A DNA stretch of 64,000 nucleotides from Pseudomonadota bacterium (GTDB taxonomy: Bacteria > Pseudomonadota > Alphaproteobacteria > Rhodobacterales > Rhodobacteraceae). The stretch lies in NCBI GenBank assembly GCA_038531775.1, contig JBCBBI010000016.1, positions 8,662-72,661 of the forward strand, read 5' to 3'. The notes under the pieces are model-generated. The model was not told the origin of the DNA. It saw only the letters and a program-made list of their open reading frames with translations, and made no database searches. Below, one piece after another: positions 27,926-64,000 of this stretch; within the stretch, counting starts at the first letter, position 1; every line of letters starts with the position of its first letter. The position numbers and the translations under genes are program-made.

Positions 27926-29095
27926 CTACGGAGAGCAGGCTGTTGTGTCTGCTCCGATTGCCGTCAGTGCCGAACACGCATCAAGAACGCGCGTTTCGTT
28001 CTTGATGTCAACAGCGTCAGACAAAGCCTGGCCAACATCTGTTCTCGAAAGGCTGGAATTCTCAGCTAGCAGCAATGCTACTATACCCGTCACGTGAGCC
28101 GTGGCAATAGAAGAGCCCGACGCGAAACGGTGGCGCTCTCCTGGCGCCGTGGTGATAACATCTCGCATTGGCGCCGGTATACGATCCGAGCGACCCAAAC
28201 CGGCCGCTATGACACCGGACATAGAAGCTGGAAAGGCGTTACGGTTTCGTCCTTCACCGGAAGCCGCAATCACGATCATTTCCTTGGCAAGCGCGGCTTC
28301 GATTAACTCCCTTAAAAGAGGGTCTTCTGTTCCACCAATACTTAGGTTGAGCACATCTACATCGTTTAGGATTGCAAAGTTTATGGCGCGCGCGAGCGAA
28401 AAGCTATTACAGCGACCGATCTGACCTGCCGCTTGCCAACAAGCGCGGAGACCCAGAAGCCGCGCCTCTGGCGCGACGCCAACGATCCCCACGGCATTTC
28501 CAGCACTTGCCGCTATAACGCCCGCCACAGCCGTGCCATGCTCCTCCGCTGGGCGAGACGGACCGGCAGCAACAAAATCATGGGCGCTGTCCATGCGGTC
28601 TTTGAGATCTTTGTGAGTGACATCAATGGCTGAGTCCACGACTCCAATCCGGATGCCTTCCCCAAGGGAGATCTGATGCGCTTTGGCCACATTGATTTCA
28701 TTGAGCGCGTTTTGCAGAGGATACAACGGATCGGTGTAAAACGCCTCAGTGGTTGTAAAGTCCTGAATCCGTTGTGCGGTTCGAATGCGGCTGTCTTTTT
28801 CCATTGCATCTATCAATGCTTGGATATCAGGCACCTTTGAGGCGTCAAACACAAAACAGTGTACACCGATGGCCTTGAGTGGCCACTCTGCAGCGAGAGG
28901 TACATCGTAGTCTCTTGAGATGTCTTTTGCTATCAGGGCGAGAGCGGCTGGATCATCGTCTGGCACCGTCAGGATGAGATACGTGTCTCCGCGTAGATTA
29001 TTGGCATCAACAAGGTTCCACTCAGGTGCTTTTGCACATGCAGAAAGGGTGAGGAACAACAGGGCTGCAAGGGTTCTGATCATGAAACCAATCAT
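27926..29095 (-). CDS. S8 (subtilase) serine peptidase, predicted lipoprotein
   Basis: Lipobox LSAC; triad VVDS, HGTAVAG, SGSSIA; usual oxyanion AAGN reads AASGE. Confidence 0.85.
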   Translation of the reverse strand: MIGFMIRTLAALLFLTLSACAKAPEWNLVDANNLRGDTYLILTVPDDDPAALALIAKDISRDYDVPLAAEWPLKAIGVHCFVFDASKVPDIQALIDAMEKDSRIRTAQRIQDFTTTEAFYTDPLYPLQNALNEINVAKAHQISLGEGIRIGVVDSAIDVTHKDLKDRMDSAHDFVAAGPSRPAEEHGTAVAGVIAASAGNAVGIVGVAPEARLLGLRACWQAAGQIGRCNSFSLARAINFAILNDVDVLNLSIGGTEDPLLRELIEAALAKEMIVIAASGEGRNRNAFPASMSGVIAAGLGRSDRIPAPMRDVITTAPGERHRFASGSSIATAHVTGIVALLLAENSSLSRTDVGQALSDAVDIKNETRVLDACSALTAIGADTTACSP

Positions 29096-29730
29096 GGCCC
29101 TTCCGGTGCTGCGAAATCAACCTCTGGCAACGCCATCAATAGATCCGCTATGGCCATAGCGTCACCGTCTTTTGGCACGTTCACCGTGTAAATACCTGCA
29201 TCAGTTGGACCTGACAGGTTTGTGAGACCGTGTTCAGCAATAATAGCGTTCAATCTGTCGTCTTTTAATCCCGGCACAGGCTGAAATTTAATTACCGCCT
29301 CAGCCTGTTCTGCGGCAGTTGTTAGCGTGACAAAGCCATCCTCGCCCGGACCTCCAAACTGTACCACCACAAACAGACAAACCGCTGCTGTTAAGCCAGT
29401 TAAACCAAGCGCTCCAGCATTGCGACCAGCAAACCACCTACGCGGCTCGGATCGCGGTGCACGTGCCACAGTCTCTGTATCAAGCTGCGCACGTATTATT
29501 TCCCAACTGCGCACTCTTGCTTGCTCAACCGGTTCTTCAACAGCAACTTGGTCTGCCAAAAACCTCTGACGCTCGATTTCTGCCTGGCAAACTTCGCAGC
29601 TTGCGGCTTCACGTTCGAATTGCTGCACTTCAGCTTCGGGCAAGGAGCCGTTCACATACCATGGGATCATGTCCCAAACCTCGTCAGAGCATTGTCTGGC
29701 TAGGGGTGTTTGATCATCACGCAAATTCAT
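29092..29730 (-). CDS. Anti-sigma factor (zf-HC2-like N-terminus, TM, C-terminal alpha/beta domain)
   Basis: MIPWYVNGSL...EAASCEVC; TM ALGLTGLTAAVCLFVVV; overlaps both neighbouring genes. Confidence 0.8.
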   Translation of the reverse strand: MNLRDDQTPLARQCSDEVWDMIPWYVNGSLPEAEVQQFEREAASCEVCQAEIERQRFLADQVAVEEPVEQARVRSWEIIRAQLDTETVARAPRSEPRRWFAGRNAGALGLTGLTAAVCLFVVVQFGGPGEDGFVTLTTAAEQAEAVIKFQPVPGLKDDRLNAIIAEHGLTNLSGPTDAGIYTVNVPKDGDAMAIADLLMALPEVDFAAPEGP

Positions 29731-30319
29731 TTTGTGCACCCTTGCTGTAAGCCTCGTCCGACAACAGATCGCGCAACCTGTTGCGCGCCGTCATCATACG
29801 GGTCTTTACGGTCCCAACTGGACATTCCAAAATTTCGGCGATTTCTGTGTAAAGATAGCCATTGTAATACGTAAGCTCCACAACCGCGCGAAGCTCTGGT
29901 TTCAGTTGTTTAAGCGCTTTCGTCACGTCCTGTGCTATCGCCAACTGCTCTACATGATCTGCATCATCACTTATCAACGTTTCATCCAACTCAACGTCAC
30001 CTTTCCGCAGGCCAAGCTTTTGGCGCTGCTTCATCGACATGCGGTAGGCAATGCCAAAGATCCATGTTGATGGCTTAGAACGGCCTTCAAATCGATCGGC
30101 GGTGCGCCAAACCGTCATTAGAACATCGTTGGCAACTTCTTCCGCTGCTTCGTTGCTATCTGTAATCCGGCGGGCGAAATGCATTAGTTTCGGAAAATAC
30201 TTACGGTGAAGCTGCTCAAAAGCCGCAACATCGCCTGCCGCAACGGCGCGCAACAGGTCCCCATCACTCATGGTTGACGAAGATCGGGATGTTCCAAGGA
30301 TGGTCTTGAGCAATCGCAT
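29717..30319 (-). CDS. ECF sigma-70 factor
   Basis: Region 2 AEEVANDV...RFEGRSKPSTWIFGIAYR; region 4 YTEIAEILECPVGTVKTR. Confidence 0.92.
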   Translation of the reverse strand: MRLLKTILGTSRSSSTMSDGDLLRAVAAGDVAAFEQLHRKYFPKLMHFARRITDSNEAAEEVANDVLMTVWRTADRFEGRSKPSTWIFGIAYRMSMKQRQKLGLRKGDVELDETLISDDADHVEQLAIAQDVTKALKQLKPELRAVVELTYYNGYLYTEIAEILECPVGTVKTRMMTARNRLRDLLSDEAYSKGAQNEFA

Positions 30320-58984: not shown

Positions 58985-59521
58985 TCAATTTTTGAAACCA
59001 AGTTTACCAGGTGCGACATTGATGAGTTCATACATATTTACGTTATTGCTCAGATCGAGTTCGCTTTGTGTCGTGTCTATCCAAACGCCAAAGTCAATCA
59101 AGTTCTTGTACTTCGAAGTAATGTAGGCTCCACGGCAAAAAATCTCGCCTGCTGCTATGCTGGGCCAGTTTATGCGCCTGGTGTTTGTGCCCACCATCAG
59201 TGCGACGCGCGTTGGCTTACTTGGCGCAAAGCCGATATTGCGCACGCAGATTCTGGCAAAGCCATCATCGCTATAGCTGGGATCTTCCGGCAGCAGGTCA
59301 GGCTTGAAGATAGCTTTGTGCTTGGTCCCAAAGGGTTTTGCTTTACGGTTTGATTTTTGATCGCGCTTTGAGCGCCCTTCTATTTGGGCCGTTTCAGCCT
59401 CGCTGAAATTGGCGCGGCTGTTTTGCTCTTTCGCCTCAGTGCCAGGCAATGTCGCCATGGCGGTTGCAAATGAGAGCGACGTGAGGATTACATTGGTTTG
59501 CATCGGAATGATCTTTTCCAT
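58985..59521 (-). CDS. Secreted CARDB (Ig-like) domain protein
   Basis: Signal-like N-terminus; PDL...VRNIG...WID...E.D.SNN; start is 59521 or 59503 (the longer ORF runs through a terminator). Confidence 0.6.
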   Translation of the reverse strand: MEKIIPMQTNVILTSLSFATAMATLPGTEAKEQNSRANFSEAETAQIEGRSKRDQKSNRKAKPFGTKHKAIFKPDLLPEDPSYSDDGFARICVRNIGFAPSKPTRVALMVGTNTRRINWPSIAAGEIFCRGAYITSKYKNLIDFGVWIDTTQSELDLSNNVNMYELINVAPGKLGFKN

Positions 59522-59624
59522 GTCGATTGTACATCGGCTAGATGAGCAGAACGGAAGGTTCAAAAGTAGATCATGAAAAGTCTGAGCAGCTGAACCAACC
59601 GGTGGCGTGCGACATGCACACGAT

Positions 59625-59650
59625 AAAAAACCCGGGGAGACCCCGGGCTT
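59625..59650 (-). terminator. Intrinsic terminator after the 59671-60180 gene
   Basis: Minus strand reads CCCGGGG-TCT-CCCCGGG-TTTTTT. Confidence 0.8.
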
Positions 59651-59670
59651 TCGCGAATACATTTTTCAAC

Positions 59671-60180
59671 TCAGCACTGATCCTGTGCAAAGTTGTTCGT
59701 GACACTTTCCTCTTGCATGGCGTCGAAATGATCTGCGCCTACCAGAACCGTGAAGCTTTCCTGGTTAAATGGATGCGGCACAGCGGCTGTGATCAGCACC
59801 TGTTTTTTGCGCGGCACGATCGGAACGGAGACCGTATAATAGGTGGTAGAGCTACCCTGAAACCCGACATAGGCATGAGACGCAGGGGCCATCTTGTCGC
59901 CGATATTCTTGACGTAGAACTGAACCGTTGAGGGTGAGTTGCACATGCCACCGCGTGCTGGCGTAACGATCAGATCCGGCAAAGCATTTTCATACTCATT
60001 GCTCACCAAATCGCCGCTGGCAGAGCGTGTTCTAGGGGCGCGCAACTGTTGTTGTCCCACCGATTTCTGGCTTACGCCTTTCTTACGAAGTTCTGCGGCC
60101 TCGGCGGAAACGACAAGGCCACTGACGATAACTGAGGCCGTCAGGGTGGAACGAATGATGTTGGCGATGATGCGGTTCAT
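59671..60180 (-). CDS. Secreted CARDB (Ig-like) domain protein
   Basis: Signal peptide (AEA-A); LPDLIV...VKNIG...GAD....EES.TNN. Confidence 0.75.
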   Translation of the reverse strand: MNRIIANIIRSTLTASVIVSGLVVSAEAAELRKKGVSQKSVGQQQLRAPRTRSASGDLVSNEYENALPDLIVTPARGGMCNSPSTVQFYVKNIGDKMAPASHAYVGFQGSSTTYYTVSVPIVPRKKQVLITAAVPHPFNQESFTVLVGADHFDAMQEESVTNNFAQDQC

Positions 60181-60277: not shown

Positions 60278-61759
60278 TCAGCAACCGTTCGACTGAACAA
60301 GCCCGTAGCCGAACTTTGTGTCCCTGCCAGATGCGCCAATGTCGCGCACGTTCTGACGCAGCGCTTTGCGAGCGTTGTTGATCGAAAACGCCCCACGTGC
60401 GGCCCGGCGCGCTAGAAGACCAATGACAAGGGGAGCCGCAAAGGATGTGCCAGACTGATAAGACGCCCCGGCCCCTTTGGCCGAATAGATATCGACACCG
60501 GGGGCCGCGAACTCGATATGCTTTCCGGTGTTTGCTTTTCGGAAGAGGCGACCTGCCGCGTCGACGGCTGTGATAGCAATCACCTCGGGTGCCGCGGCGG
60601 GGTATTTTGGTTTCGACGAGCGATCATTGCCCGCAGCGGCGATCATAACCATTCCCTTGCTCGCAGATAGCGTAAGGATACGACCCATAGTCGCATTGGG
60701 TGGCCCAGCAAAGGACATGTTCACCAGCCGCACACGCTGGCCCGCTAGCCAGCCAATACCTGCGGCCACGTTCTCCAAGCGCCCGCCGTTGCGTCCCTTG
60801 GCATTGCTAAAAGCTGCCGCCGCAAAGACCTGCGCACCTGGTGCGACGCCAATAAGAGGACCTGCAGCCGGCCCACCGGCGATGAGGGCCGCCACCGCTG
60901 TTCCATGATCGGCACCAACATGACGCTCGCCCGCGCTCAGCACAGATTTTCGTGTGACAGAGACGCCCTTGAGCGCCGCATGATCAGTATTGACCGGTCC
61001 GTCGATCACGCCCACACGCACCGCACCGCGCAATCGGCAGACCTTCGAAGGGTCATCGCCCAGCATCTTCGAATGATAGAGCCGCGGGCCCGAAGATAGC
61101 CGATAAATATGGTGCAAATCGATAACCGCCGTTGATGCCACGTTTTGCAAAGCCGCCCGCGCCTGTTGCAAGGTTAGATTGCCGGGAAAGGCATAGAACT
61201 GCATCTGCTGACCCAGGCCAGGAATGTTGCGCGTGCGTAGAAGCTGCGCACCGACGCTCTGCATTGCATTTGCTGCGGCATTTGCTTGCCCAGTGGAGAC
61301 GGTCAGCGCGTATTCGGACGAACCGTCCGGCGCCGAAACCACATCGCTGCCAGCGCGTTTGCTCTTGGTGGTGCGGCTCTTGCGCTCTGGCCTGTTGGAT
61401 GCTGCGTCGCTGCATATCTCCAAGCGCCCTAGTGTCAAAGCAGACGTGCCAGGTCGTTCCCAAAGCATTGAGTACATCGCCCCTTCACTGAGCCCACGCC
61501 GAGGTATGACGACAGAGATGCGCCGAATTGACCACCTCGTTGCACGCGCCACTACAGCCGGGCCCGATCCTGTGAGAAGGATCCGGCCCGAAGGGCTGCG
61601 GCCAAAGCCGGGGCCTGTTACTGTAGCCGTGGCCCCAAGAGCATAGCAGTCGGACCGATCAAGCCGGTACTGGGCTTGGGCGTCTTGCGATAAAAGCACA
61701 ATCGCAAACGCCGCCAAAATGATATGGGCAAAACTGTGCATATCATTCGACGCTTTCAA
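60278..61759 (-). CDS. Secreted S8 (subtilase) serine peptidase with N-terminal IPT/TIG-like domain and propeptide
   Basis: Signal peptide (AQA-Q); VTGPGFG; VIDG, HGTAVA, AAAGND, SGTSFAAP. Confidence 0.9.
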   Translation of the reverse strand: MKASNDMHSFAHIILAAFAIVLLSQDAQAQYRLDRSDCYALGATATVTGPGFGRSPSGRILLTGSGPAVVARATRWSIRRISVVIPRRGLSEGAMYSMLWERPGTSALTLGRLEICSDAASNRPERKSRTTKSKRAGSDVVSAPDGSSEYALTVSTGQANAAANAMQSVGAQLLRTRNIPGLGQQMQFYAFPGNLTLQQARAALQNVASTAVIDLHHIYRLSSGPRLYHSKMLGDDPSKVCRLRGAVRVGVIDGPVNTDHAALKGVSVTRKSVLSAGERHVGADHGTAVAALIAGGPAAGPLIGVAPGAQVFAAAAFSNAKGRNGGRLENVAAGIGWLAGQRVRLVNMSFAGPPNATMGRILTLSASKGMVMIAAAGNDRSSKPKYPAAAPEVIAITAVDAAGRLFRKANTGKHIEFAAPGVDIYSAKGAGASYQSGTSFAAPLVIGLLARRAARGAFSINNARKALRQNVRDIGASGRDTKFGYGLVQSNGC

Positions 61760-62345
61760 TCAGCCGGGTGCGTTGTTTCAAAGCAGAAAGAGCAGCAGTG
61801 CGCGCTGCCTCGTCGGTTGCCGCCAGCGTGTAGAGGCCGAGTGCGGAAGGCCCATCGATGATCATAAGATCAAGCTCCAACATTAGTGCACGAATTTGCG
61901 CCTCGGTCGCATCGGGGTTGAAGGCCACGACAAGTGTTGGACCGACGCCAATGCTTTCTTCCTCGCCGGCAAGTTCAAATCCACTGCCGTCGCTCAGGCC
62001 AAGATAAGCCGTCTGCGCGATGAAAAGACCAAAGACGACCATCGCTGCAATCTTCCAGAAACGCGGTGGGGCAGGTATATTGGCGGCTGGTGGTGCCGTC
62101 ATCGTCTCGGCCTCGATATCGCGCAAAAGCCGGGCTAGACCAAACTCACCTGGGGATTGTACCTCGGCTTCTTTCTGCATGCTCTCGCGCATGGCCTTCA
62201 GCGCCTGGAGCTGTGCCTGAAGATCAGGATCAGCATCTACGGCAGCCTCGACTGCCTCGCGCTCCTCACCTTCAAGCGAACCGTTTGCTAAAAAGACTAA
62301 AAGCGCCTCCACCTCTTCGCGCGGCATATCGAATTGCTCGGTCAT
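61743..62345 (-). CDS. Anti-sigma factor (Cys-free zf-HC2-like N-terminus, TM, C-terminal alpha/beta domain)
   Basis: LLVFLANGSLEGEEREAVE; TM FWKIAAMVVFGLFIA; ATGA overlap with the ECF gene. Confidence 0.8.
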   Translation of the reverse strand: MTEQFDMPREEVEALLVFLANGSLEGEEREAVEAAVDADPDLQAQLQALKAMRESMQKEAEVQSPGEFGLARLLRDIEAETMTAPPAANIPAPPRFWKIAAMVVFGLFIAQTAYLGLSDGSGFELAGEEESIGVGPTLVVAFNPDATEAQIRALMLELDLMIIDGPSALGLYTLAATDEAARTAALSALKQRTRLIESVE

Positions 62346-62899
62346 GTCCGTGCCTCCTTCATCCGGGCCTCAAGGCAACGAAGAAGCAGCTTTTTAGCGT
62401 GAAAAATGCGCGTTTTGATCGTGCCTTCGGGAACCTCAGCGGTCTCTGCGATCTGGCCGTAGGACATGTCTTCATAAAAAGCGAGTTCCACCGCTGAGCG
62501 GTGCTGCGGCTTTAAGGTCTCCATGCAAAAGCGTAGGTGCACCGCCTCTTGTGCCACCGCAATGCAGGTTACCGCATCGGGCGTGTCGTCCACCGTTTCT
62601 TCCATTTCGTCAGTCAGATCGGTTCGTGAGTGTTTGCGAAAATGATCCATTGTCTTCCTGTAAGCGATTCCAAAAACCCATGTTTTGACGGTCGACCTGC
62701 CCTCAAAGCGCGATGCTGAGCGCCAGAGATCAATGAAAACGTCATGGAGTATGTCGGAGGACTGATGCGGATCGTTCAATTTCGATTGGATAAATCTGTA
62801 GACGGGCTTCTCAAGCGCCTTGTAAAGAGCCGCAAAGGCCGCGCGATCCTGCGCGGCCACGCGGGCCATCAAGCTGGCAAGCTCAGTATTGTCAGTCAT
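62342..62899 (-). CDS. ECF sigma-70 factor
   Basis: RFEGRSTVKTWVFGIAYR; YGQIAETAEVPEGTIKTRIFHA. Confidence 0.92.
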   Translation of the reverse strand: MTDNTELASLMARVAAQDRAAFAALYKALEKPVYRFIQSKLNDPHQSSDILHDVFIDLWRSASRFEGRSTVKTWVFGIAYRKTMDHFRKHSRTDLTDEMEETVDDTPDAVTCIAVAQEAVHLRFCMETLKPQHRSAVELAFYEDMSYGQIAETAEVPEGTIKTRIFHAKKLLLRCLEARMKEART

Positions 62900-62926: not shown

Positions 62927-64000
62927 CTACTTCAACTGGCGCTTTGAAGATACTGCTATAGGCGTACCCGCCCCGTCGAACGCCACCACGTACCAAAACA
63001 AACGCGTCTCCGTATTCAGACGTCGAAGCGTGAACTGGCGCAACAACGCCGATGTCTGCCTGCTCTCAATGGCCGCAAGAAAATCACGGTCAAGACCGAC
63101 GGCGTCAGTCCGGCTGAATTCAACGCGGTAACGTGCCGCTCCTGGTACAGGTTGCCAGGCAAAACGCGTGGCCCCTTTGACCCCAAAGCCAGGCGGCGGA
63201 GACAGGAGGTTCACGTTCTTTGCTGCCGGTTCTGCTGCGTCCGGTTCAACCACGCTGTAGCTGATAACCTCCAATGGAGTCGGGCTCAAACCTAGTGTGA
63301 CAGCTTCCGGTACAAACCGCACCTGATATAGGCCTGGTCTGTCTGTTCGAAGATTAGGGCTTTCAAAAACCGTCCGAACCGCGCCGGAGAGGCGCCGGGA
63401 CACCCGCCCAATCGGTCTGAACGCGGCAGAACCAGTCGGACCAGAAACCTCCCACCGTCCGGCAAAACTACCGCGACCAAGCGACGAAATCTCTAGCCTT
63501 GCATTCAGTGCATCGCCGGATTCAACCACTGCAAAACGGCTGTCATCGTCAAAGATCAACTCCAAATTCCGAATGGAGAGCGATCCGCCCGAAGATGGCT
63601 GCAAAGAAATCGTTCCGGGGATGGGTCCATTGGTGGCGACGGTCGAACCAAAGCTGCGGGTGTAGGTGCTTGGACCAGCCGCCCCAATCGCCTCTGCTGT
63701 GTTCCGGTCAATAAACAGCCGTTCTGTCAGAGTTATCGTTTCAGTTTGACCAGCGCCAGGGCTTGGCACCCGTTTCGATAAACTTCCACCCAAAGTGACC
63801 CCCGTGCTCGTCACGCCGCTTGCAGAAGACACCGTTTCCGCGGCGGGACCAAAAAAGTTTAGCCTAATCGTCCATCTTACCGTGATTGCACTGGATCCGC
63901 CCGGGTTCACTCGAACAGTCGCGGGCGCAGGTGATACAGAAACAACGACGGCTTGTGCGTGGGCGCTTTGTAGCGAAAGGAGAAGCACAAAAGTTGTCAG
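62927..64000 (-). CDS. Secreted beta-sandwich (Ig/FN3-like) protein, start outside the window
   Basis: Frame open to the window end; signal peptide end (SAHA-Q); C-terminal FAWQPVPGAARYRVEF...WYVVAFD is FN3-like. Confidence 0.7.
   Translation of the reverse strand: MTTFVLLLSLQSAHAQAVVVSVSPAPATVRVNPGGSSAITVRWTIRLNFFGPAAETVSSASGVTSTGVTLGGSLSKRVPSPGAGQTETITLTERLFIDRNTAEAIGAAGPSTYTRSFGSTVATNGPIPGTISLQPSSGGSLSIRNLELIFDDDSRFAVVESGDALNARLEISSLGRGSFAGRWEVSGPTGSAAFRPIGRVSRRLSGAVRTVFESPNLRTDRPGLYQVRFVPEAVTLGLSPTPLEVISYSVVEPDAAEPAAKNVNLLSPPPGFGVKGATRFAWQPVPGAARYRVEFSRTDAVGLDRDFLAAIESRQTSALLRQFTLRRLNTETRLFWYVVAFDGAGTPIAVSSKRQLK

Follow-up and report, generated by a model that had tools for sequence, protein, structure and literature searches.

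The window analysed here, a 64,000-nucleotide stretch of contig JBCBBI010000016.1 from a marine alphaproteobacterium, carries two co-linear modules on its minus strand, each consisting of genes for a sigma factor of the extracytoplasmic function (ECF) type, an anti-sigma factor and an S8 peptidase (subtilase) in that order. Our analysis places the C-terminal domain of the anti-sigma factors among the subtilase prodomains by fold class (fervidolysin-type, I9-like), an assignment in which our confidence is good though incomplete. Three independent lines of evidence, from Pfam profiles, structure and genomic context, concur on this resemblance. By analogy with known systems, the neighbouring S8 protease may control release of the sigma factor through the prodomain-like ectodomain, with the mature protease docking on the domain, degrading it and thereby acting as the site-1 cut, a reading whose chances we consider evenly balanced. 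Module 1 comprises the genes for the sigma factor (29717-30319), the anti-sigma factor (29092-29739) and the S8 peptidase (27926-29095), and module 2 the corresponding genes at 62342-62899, 61743-62345 and 60278-61759. Neighbouring genes overlap or almost touch in both modules.

A prodomain-like domain at the anti-sigma C-terminus

The domain occupies residues 147-215 of anti-sigma factor 1 (29095-29301, minus strand), where it is identified by a match to PF22148, and residues 134-200 of anti-sigma factor 2 (61746-61946, minus strand), where it is identified by its AlphaFold2 fold and Foldseek. Copy 1 has the sequence ...VIKFQPVPGLKDDRLNAIIAEHGLTNLSGPTDAGIYTV...EVDFAAPEGP, of which the C-terminal end ...EVDFAAPEGP is conserved, and copy 2 has the sequence ...LVVAFNPDATEAQIRALMLELDLMIIDGPSALGLYTL...RLIESVE, the protein stopping right behind the last strand (LIESVE). 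The two C-terminal copies are truly homologous, given that hhalign aligns their domain families over 61 columns with a probability of 97.8% and an E-value of 8.8e-13. An AlphaFold2 model of anti-sigma factor 2, built with a 38-sequence alignment, places strands at residues 137-142, 161-164, 171-175 and 196-199 and helices at 148-158 and 179-191, with block-mean predicted local distance difference test (pLDDT) values of 93-98 from residue 141. Because copy 1 is homologous to the modelled copy 2, this beta-alpha-beta-beta-alpha-beta pattern can be carried over to it.

The hairpin motif of the domain reads GPTDAGIY in copy 1 (29188-29211) and GPSALGLY in copy 2 (61830-61853). In an alignment of 71 domain sequences the two Gly and the Pro of GP-x3-G-x-Y are invariant and the Tyr is present in 69/71, and a Thr follows this Tyr in only 14/71. 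The last strand is acid-rich, with the consensus [ILV][VI][ED][ST]x[EQD], and the tail beyond it is variable, acid-rich and 0-9 residues long, being absent (0 residues) from copy 2 and PEGP in copy 1. A first-pass annotation of this DNA had described a pattern of about 65 amino acids of the beta-alpha-beta-beta-alpha-beta type, with a shared GP-x3-G-x-Y-T motif, at the end of both anti-sigma factors. The peptides and coordinates that it quoted for both domains are correct, and the pattern holds for copy 2 by AlphaFold2 and for copy 1 solely through homology; the motif holds as far as the Tyr, but the terminal Thr does not belong to it.

Sequence profiles provide the first indication of the fold class. 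Copy 1 matches PF22148 (Fervidolysin_NPro-like) with an E-value of 7.9e-5 and 23.4 bits, the gathering score being 21, and residues 149-212 align to positions 21-80 of the 81 in the profile. This match is recurrent, as PF22148 is hit by 20 of 71 isolated, non-redundant domains (best E 6.1e-6), any other Pfam family is hit by no more than two of them, and none of the 71 matches an ACT or RRM Pfam family. In scans of full-length proteins, PF22148 was found in 5/10 sequences of alignment A1, which represents the copy-1 family, and in 4/38 members of the copy-2 family.

Structural comparison points in the same direction. The top matches of the copy-2 model in the PDB by Foldseek are the I9 inhibitor POIA1 (1itp), the EpiP prodomain (3qfh, 3t41) and unprocessed pro-subtilisin E (3whi), and the model also matches BPN' prosegments (3cnq_P, 1scj_B, 1spb_P). 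These prosegment and I9 matches have probabilities of 0.98-1.00 and root-mean-square deviations of 2.3-3.5 Å over 63-68 columns. Among the best 14 matches, nine are POIA1, EpiP, pro-subtilisin E or BPN' prosegments with E-values of 0.02-0.09, and ACT and RRM folds are interleaved with them. At rank 28, with a probability of 0.98, stands 3wqb_B, the external chaperone ORF2 of Aeromonas sobria ASP.

Several results weigh against the assignment. Foldseek assigns weak E-values, the best being 0.023 and none reaching 1e-3, and ACT (5uyy, 3c1n, 2f1f, 1sc6) and RRM ferredoxin-like folds come close behind the prosegments. Copy 2 of the window has no Pfam prodomain match at E<=1, PF05922 (Inhibitor_I9) was not matched in any domain scan, and the domain profile, when compared by sequence with all PDB chains, returned nothing below E 0.8. 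The first-pass annotation had proposed that these domains resemble I9-like subtilase propeptides and had suggested Foldseek as a check. This proposal is upheld at the level of the fold class by the PF22148 matches of copy 1 and its relatives, the prosegments and I9 structures that lead the Foldseek list for the copy-2 model, and the adjoining S8 gene, but it is tempered by the silence of Pfam on copy 2, by the missing PF05922 match, and by structural E-values of 0.02 or above with ACT and RRM folds nearly equal. We do not file the domain as a bona fide member of the I9 family.

Coupling to S8 subtilases across the family

The third line of evidence is genomic context. Anti-sigma factor 1 has nine homologues, from Yoonia, Tateyamaria and marine metagenomes, and a word-based search for anti-sigma factor 2 returned 169, from Roseovarius, Ruegeria, Sedimentimonas and others. 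Scanning one genome per species with the copy-2 family gave 80 loci, 77 of which have enough flanking sequence to test for an S8 gene. An ECF sigma factor gene lies immediately upstream of the anti-sigma gene in all 80 loci, and an S8 gene was detected downstream by tblastn in 76/80. In 73 of the 77 testable loci an S8 open reading frame could be called immediately downstream, starting between -43 and +27 nucleotides from the anti-sigma stop codon and mostly overlapping the anti-sigma gene; of the loci without a called adjacent S8 gene, three end at a contig edge. The copy-2 loci extend beyond Rhodobacterales to Kiloniella, Sneathiella, Rhodospirillales and a metagenome-assembled genome (MAG) of Methylophagaceae, with anti-sigma identity falling to 34-37%. 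For the copy-1 family the triad is present in the four loci that were fetched (4/4), with overlaps of 4 nucleotides. Two more members, found by the domain profile alone and picked for their greater length, also lie between ECF sigma and S8 genes. A simple k-mer tally of the sequences upstream of the sigma genes in the 80 loci showed no enriched motif that could represent a shared ECF-type promoter.

The type of domain and the type of protease go together. Copy-1-type domains are paired only with S8 proteases of a Glu-bearing type (5/5; described below), and in every locus with an S8 match the protease behind a copy-2-type domain resembles protease 2 of the window more than protease 1. This shows that whole modules co-diverge. 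In three of the four copy-1-type loci elsewhere (L085, L086 and L087) the genes that follow the triad encode a PG_binding_1 protein, a Tll0287-like/HAMP protein and a Ser/Thr kinase; module 1 of the window has no such neighbours.

When the isolated domain was used for an exhaustive profile search, 3962 clusters (50% identity) matched at E<=1e-3, 710 of them with E<=1e-10. In all of the best 150 matches listed, which are proteins of about 64-280 amino acids, the domain lies at the C-terminus or within a few residues of it. It thus marks out a large anti-sigma family that is tied to subtilases and has gone essentially unannotated, most members of which are annotated as 'hypothetical protein' or merely as 'zf-HC2 domain-containing'.

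The breadth of this synteny bears on whether the prodomain resemblance could be convergent or accidental, a common small alpha/beta fold without functional meaning. The fold is indeed one of the most frequent small folds, the structural E-values alone do not reach significance, and the domain profile found no PDB sequence match. Against this stand the recurrent and specific Pfam match, one instance of which exceeds the gathering score, and a near-obligate subtilase synteny across several orders, and we consider an accidental resemblance highly improbable.

Anti-sigma factors, proteases and a proposed route to sigma release

Both middle genes are single-pass class-I ECF anti-sigma factors, for which the profile scores are weak but the position and topology are those expected. 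Anti-sigma factor 1 (215 amino acids; 29092-29739, minus strand) matches two profiles below their cut-offs, zf-HC2 with E 0.007 and NF052375 'antisigma' with E 1.6e-8, and zf-HC2 is matched by 9/10 sequences of alignment A1. Its N-terminal anti-sigma domain is cytoplasmic, a single transmembrane helix follows (residues ~109-128, 29356-29415), and the C-terminal part is periplasmic; the hydrophobic stretch GALGLTGLTAAVCLFVVVQF has Arg residues ahead of it and acidic residues behind. Its gene overlaps both the sigma factor 1 gene and the S8 gene of module 1, the latter by 4 nucleotides. Anti-sigma factor 2 (200 amino acids; 61743-62345, minus strand) matches NF052375 below the cut-off (E 1.3e-8), and 20/38 members of its family match zf-HC2. 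Its AlphaFold2 model has helices at residues 9-20, 26-38, 40-60 and 67-82, which make up a four-helix anti-sigma domain without Cys or His zinc ligands, then a transmembrane helix at 96-117 (61995-62060), followed by a disordered linker; the hydrophobic stretch (97-117) is preceded by basic and followed by acidic residues. By the positive-inside rule, the C-terminal part of both proteins is expected to lie outside the cytoplasm. Of the H-x3-C-x2-C zinc site, anti-sigma factor 1 keeps C-x2-C (C-E-V-C) and misses the His (29590-29700), and the equivalent segment of anti-sigma factor 2 has no Cys or His at all (62200-62320). With the site incomplete in the one and absent from the other, both are non-ZAS class-I anti-sigma factors, that is, not canonical zinc-binding ones.

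Between the membrane and the prodomain-like domain, each family has its own juxtamembrane motif. In the copy-2 family it reads [GD]-[FY]-x-L-A-[GS]-G, with Ala in 77/80 and the sequence GFELAG in anti-sigma factor 2 (residues 122-127, 61965-61982), and in the copy-1 family it reads G-F-V-T-L-T (residues 135-140 of anti-sigma factor 1, 29320-29337).

The proteases encoded behind the two anti-sigma genes plausibly are both active, judging from the Asp/His/Ser triad kept in both families. In protease 1 (389 amino acids; 27926-29095, minus strand; Peptidase_S8 E 4.9e-29) a lipobox (LSAC, Cys20) is followed by a putative prodomain at ~37-115 (28751-28987) and then by the catalytic domain (145-362), whose catalytic residues are D154, H186 and S329. 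At the position of the oxyanion-hole Asn it carries Glu281 (28253-28255, AASGEG), a Glu kept in 5/5 orthologues; the protease 2 family keeps AAAGN here. Protease 2 (493 amino acids; 60278-61759, minus strand; Peptidase_S8 E 2.2e-30) has a signal peptide; residues 147-221 (61097-61321) form an I9-like prodomain of its own, and the catalytic domain (247-486) contains D253, H285, N378 and S439, which are conserved in the family. In its AlphaFold2 model (mean pLDDT 91.3) the prodomain shows the beta-alpha-beta-beta-alpha-beta fold with block-mean pLDDT of 94-98, and a low-confidence junction with a conserved G-P-R-[LV]-Y lies between prodomain and catalytic domain. Foldseek matches this model to unautoprocessed pro-subtilisin E, Tk-subtilisin, fervidolysin and EpiP with E-values of 1e-18 to 2e-20, and because the alignments span 380-420 columns, the prodomain and the catalytic domain match jointly. 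The claim that the pro-regions of the adjacent proteases share the pattern of the anti-sigma domain holds for protease 2, the modelled prodomain of which shows this unit and the whole model of which superposes on unautoprocessed pro-subtilisins; for protease 1 the evidence is a sequence pattern and a weak, co-linear hhalign match to the pro-region of protease 2. An Ig-like beta-sandwich stands at residues 44-115 of protease 2 (61415-61630), between signal peptide and prodomain, which is an unusual position, and it is present in only some orthologues (e.g. L011-L013, L037 and L064).

The prodomain-like domain forms the C-terminus of a separate anti-sigma protein and is not N-terminal to an S8 catalytic domain in one polypeptide. 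One candidate for a natural fusion of anti-sigma factor and S8 protease, a 689-residue frame at L017:4001-6067, was rejected, as it contains two compensating frameshifts inside the conserved GPSALGLY region and comes from a long-read MAG. It probably reflects an assembly error or marks a pseudogene. At L011, the anti-sigma and S8 genes share a reading frame, with just a stop codon and one further codon between them.

Prosegments and I9 inhibitors form tight complexes with subtilases before being degraded, and the release of anti-sigma factors with single-pass topology commonly proceeds through site-1 and then site-2 proteolysis. If the modules combine these two properties, the subtilase would be exported as a zymogen and would shed its own prodomain. 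The mature enzyme would then bind the membrane-tethered prodomain-like domain, as subtilases rebind their prosegments, and would go on to destroy it, as happens with prosegments and the I9 'temporary inhibitors'. Trimming of the ectodomain in this manner would amount to the site-1 cut, leaving an anti-sigma stub open to an intramembrane site-2 protease and freeing the sigma factor. The switch would thereby signal the presence of an active cognate protease in the periplasm. The first-pass annotation had put forward a related idea, in which the anti-sigma factor, as a membrane-tethered propeptide mimic, would bind the mature protease and report its state.

A number of findings count against control of sigma release by the neighbouring protease. 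The anti-sigma domains show almost no sequence relationship to the cognate pro-regions (hhalign probability 0.1-4.6%), and neither PF22148 nor Inhibitor_I9 was found in any of 51 cognate proteases (0/51), on which grounds we rejected the idea that the domain is a recent copy of its neighbour's prodomain. This rejection carries a caveat, in that prodomains diverge fast, given that the proteases' own pro-regions barely detect each other (probability 11.6%). The fervidolysin-type prodomain family is matched more closely in sequence by the anti-sigma domains than by the prodomains of the proteases themselves. Since the tail beyond the last strand is short and variable (0 residues in copy 2), it is doubtful that the domain enters the active site in the canonical, substrate-like manner. 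We also considered whether the linker motif [FY]-x-L-A-[GS]-G mimics the prodomain/mature junction of the protease 2 family (Y-x-[FYL]-A-x-G-P-R), and rejected this with a position-specific scoring matrix of the junction, which gave the window linker a score of -4.6, under nearly all shuffles, and made the linker the best site in just 19/80 members. Protease 1 may be a poor enzyme because Glu replaces its oxyanion Asn. At one locus the S8 gene lies 3.4 kb away, and at L065 (3995-4702), the sole clear exception among the 77 loci, the anti-sigma factor has a longer linker and a variant motif (GPTDRGQY), with no S8 gene within 4 kb.

Some of these findings would fit a different account, in which the sigma factor has the protease as its output or accessory, comparable to MucD, the C-terminal domain is a generic ferredoxin-like sensor of something else, possibly ACT-like and binding a ligand or a protein, and a housekeeping enzyme performs the site-1 cut. 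Linkage in an operon is all that would be expected of a main regulon member, a protease is absent at one related locus, no sequence kinship was detected between the anti-sigma domain and the cognate prodomain, and ACT domains and RRMs have Foldseek E-values near those of the prosegments. This account is less easily squared with the match of 20/71 domains to PF22148 and of none to ACT or RRM families, with prosegments as the Foldseek leaders at a probability of 1.00, or with the very tight coupling to S8 genes, which overlap the anti-sigma gene in most of the 73 loci. That a prodomain-class fold should be linked to subtilases specifically is hard to call coincidence, and we regard the output account as rather unlikely, though deserving of weight.

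The modelled prodomain of protease 2 bears on another alternative, in which control runs in reverse: the ectodomain would be a membrane-tethered inhibitor, chaperone or dock acting in trans, which would retain the subtilase at the inner membrane or help it mature there, while the sigma factor would be released independently of the protease. Both the inhibitor POIA1 and 3wqb_B, from the ASP-ORF2 chaperone complex, are among the Foldseek matches, the free C-terminus of the domain resembles that of a cleaved prosegment, and translational coupling would favour stoichiometric co-production of the two partners. However, protease 2 has a complete prodomain of its own, confidently docked in the model, and would have no need of one in trans; the same probably applies to protease 1, whose pro-region has the same sequence pattern. 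As the proteases bring their own prodomain or pro-region, a second chaperone is apparently unnecessary. Fusion to an anti-sigma domain in thousands of clusters is also hard to explain without coupling to transcription, and we judge reverse control to be quite unlikely.

Paralogous modules and known systems

The two modules of the window are diverged paralogues. ECF sigma factor 1 (200 amino acids; 29717-30319, minus strand) matches Pfam Sigma70_ECF, Sigma70_r2 and Sigma70_r4_2, and ECF sigma factor 2 (185 amino acids; 62342-62899, minus strand) matches Sigma70_r2 and Sigma70_r4_2; both score above the cut-off of TIGR02937 (sigma70-ECF). Identity between the modules is 39% for the sigma factors and 30% for the proteases, and BLASTP aligns the two anti-sigma factors only in the C-terminal domain (E 0.002). 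The two modules are presumably insulated from each other. Module 2 is flanked by genes for secreted proteins, none of which is kept in the Roseovarius loci. Downstream are a CARDB-domain protein (E 2.3e-7) and an unassigned 225-residue secreted protein, at 59671-60180 and 58985-59662 on the minus strand, and 27 nucleotides upstream of sigma factor 2 is a 353-residue, beta-rich secreted protein with a weak fn3 match (62927-63988, minus strand).

The closest structural counterparts of the anti-sigma domain are probably the subtilase prosegments and I9 inhibitors (1SPB, 1SCJ, 3CNQ, 3WHI; POIA1 1ITP; EpiP 3QFH; PF22148), with which it shares a beta-alpha-beta-beta-alpha-beta fold of about 65-75 amino acids, an acid-rich last strand and linkage to S8 enzymes. 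In contrast to prosegments, the domain is C-terminal on a membrane anti-sigma factor instead of N-terminal to a catalytic domain, is not covalently joined to the protease, and has no conserved tail long enough for the active-site cleft; the protease here moreover has its own prodomain. The domain also has a GP[ST]xxGxY hairpin of its own and fails to match PF05922. A prodomain-like protein that is separately encoded and acts in trans on a subtilase has a precedent in the ASP chaperone ORF2 (3WQB). That protein, however, is a soluble chaperone for a protease without its own prodomain, whereas protease 2 appears from its model to keep its prodomain, and the domain described here is fused to a regulator of transcription.

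Among ECF systems, E. coli sigmaE-RseA (with DegS and RseP) and B. subtilis sigmaW-RsiW (with PrsW and RasP) likewise pair an ECF sigma factor with a neighbouring class-I anti-sigma factor of the single-pass kind, made up of a cytoplasmic anti-sigma domain and an extracytoplasmic C-terminal part, and the logic that we propose by analogy, a site-1 cut in the ectodomain followed by a site-2 cut, would be the same. The modules differ in that the candidate site-1 protease is an S8 subtilase of the same operon, not an S1C (DegS) or PrsW-type enzyme, and in that the sensor domain shares its fold class with the protease's own inhibitor. In sigmaV-RsiV of B. subtilis and Enterococcus, the anti-sigma ectodomain binds lysozyme, whereupon the anti-sigma factor is proteolysed, with signal peptidase as the site-1 enzyme. 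The likeness is a conceptual one, the ectodomain serving as an enzyme receptor or inhibitor-like binder; the fold of RsiV is unrelated and its enzyme is foreign, while the enzyme here is co-encoded and could cut by itself. A gene for a periplasmic serine protease also lies within the ECF sigma/anti-sigma operons algU-mucABCD of Pseudomonas and rpoE-rseA-mucD of Xanthomonas. MucD, however, belongs to the HtrA family (S1C); it serves quality control, clears inducing signals and damps the response indirectly, and the ectodomains of MucA and RseA are not like protease prodomains. The modules are unlike all the systems compared, as they join a prodomain-class sensor to a co-encoded subtilase that already owns a prodomain. 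Full-text literature searches found no published description of an anti-sigma/ECF arrangement with a subtilase or prodomain. A term search in the main text of PMC7826278, the ECF re-classification paper, likewise gave none, although an S8 neighbour could still feature in the supplementary group descriptions of that paper.

The assignment of the sensor to a prodomain fold class suggests a concrete candidate for the trigger mechanism of a family that seems to be large and unannotated. Extended to that family, the control of sigma release by the neighbouring protease would mean that a large class of ECF modules, with a sensor domain that makes up at least about 4,000 clusters (50% identity), senses by means of a 'pre-cleaved prodomain decoy'. 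The co-encoded subtilase, once its prodomain is shed, would be the dedicated site-1 protease or the activating ligand, and the two copies in the window would be insulated protease/decoy pairs. We advance this generalisation tentatively, with confidence somewhat short of even.

Pairs of ECF sigma and anti-sigma factors rank with the most abundant signalling systems of bacteria, and to our knowledge the input signal is unknown for most ECF groups. Here the sensor can be assigned to a fold class known to bind, and then to be destroyed by, the type of enzyme that the next gene encodes. If the proposed control of sigma release is true, subtilases would join the short list of anti-sigma site-1 proteases, and the modules would represent the first subtilase-driven anti-sigma cascade, in which zymogen activation in the periplasm is turned directly into transcription. 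The prodomain fold would have found a new use as signalling bait instead of chaperone or inhibitor, and the paralogous pair in one genome would offer a natural system for studying the specificity of recognition between protease and prodomain.

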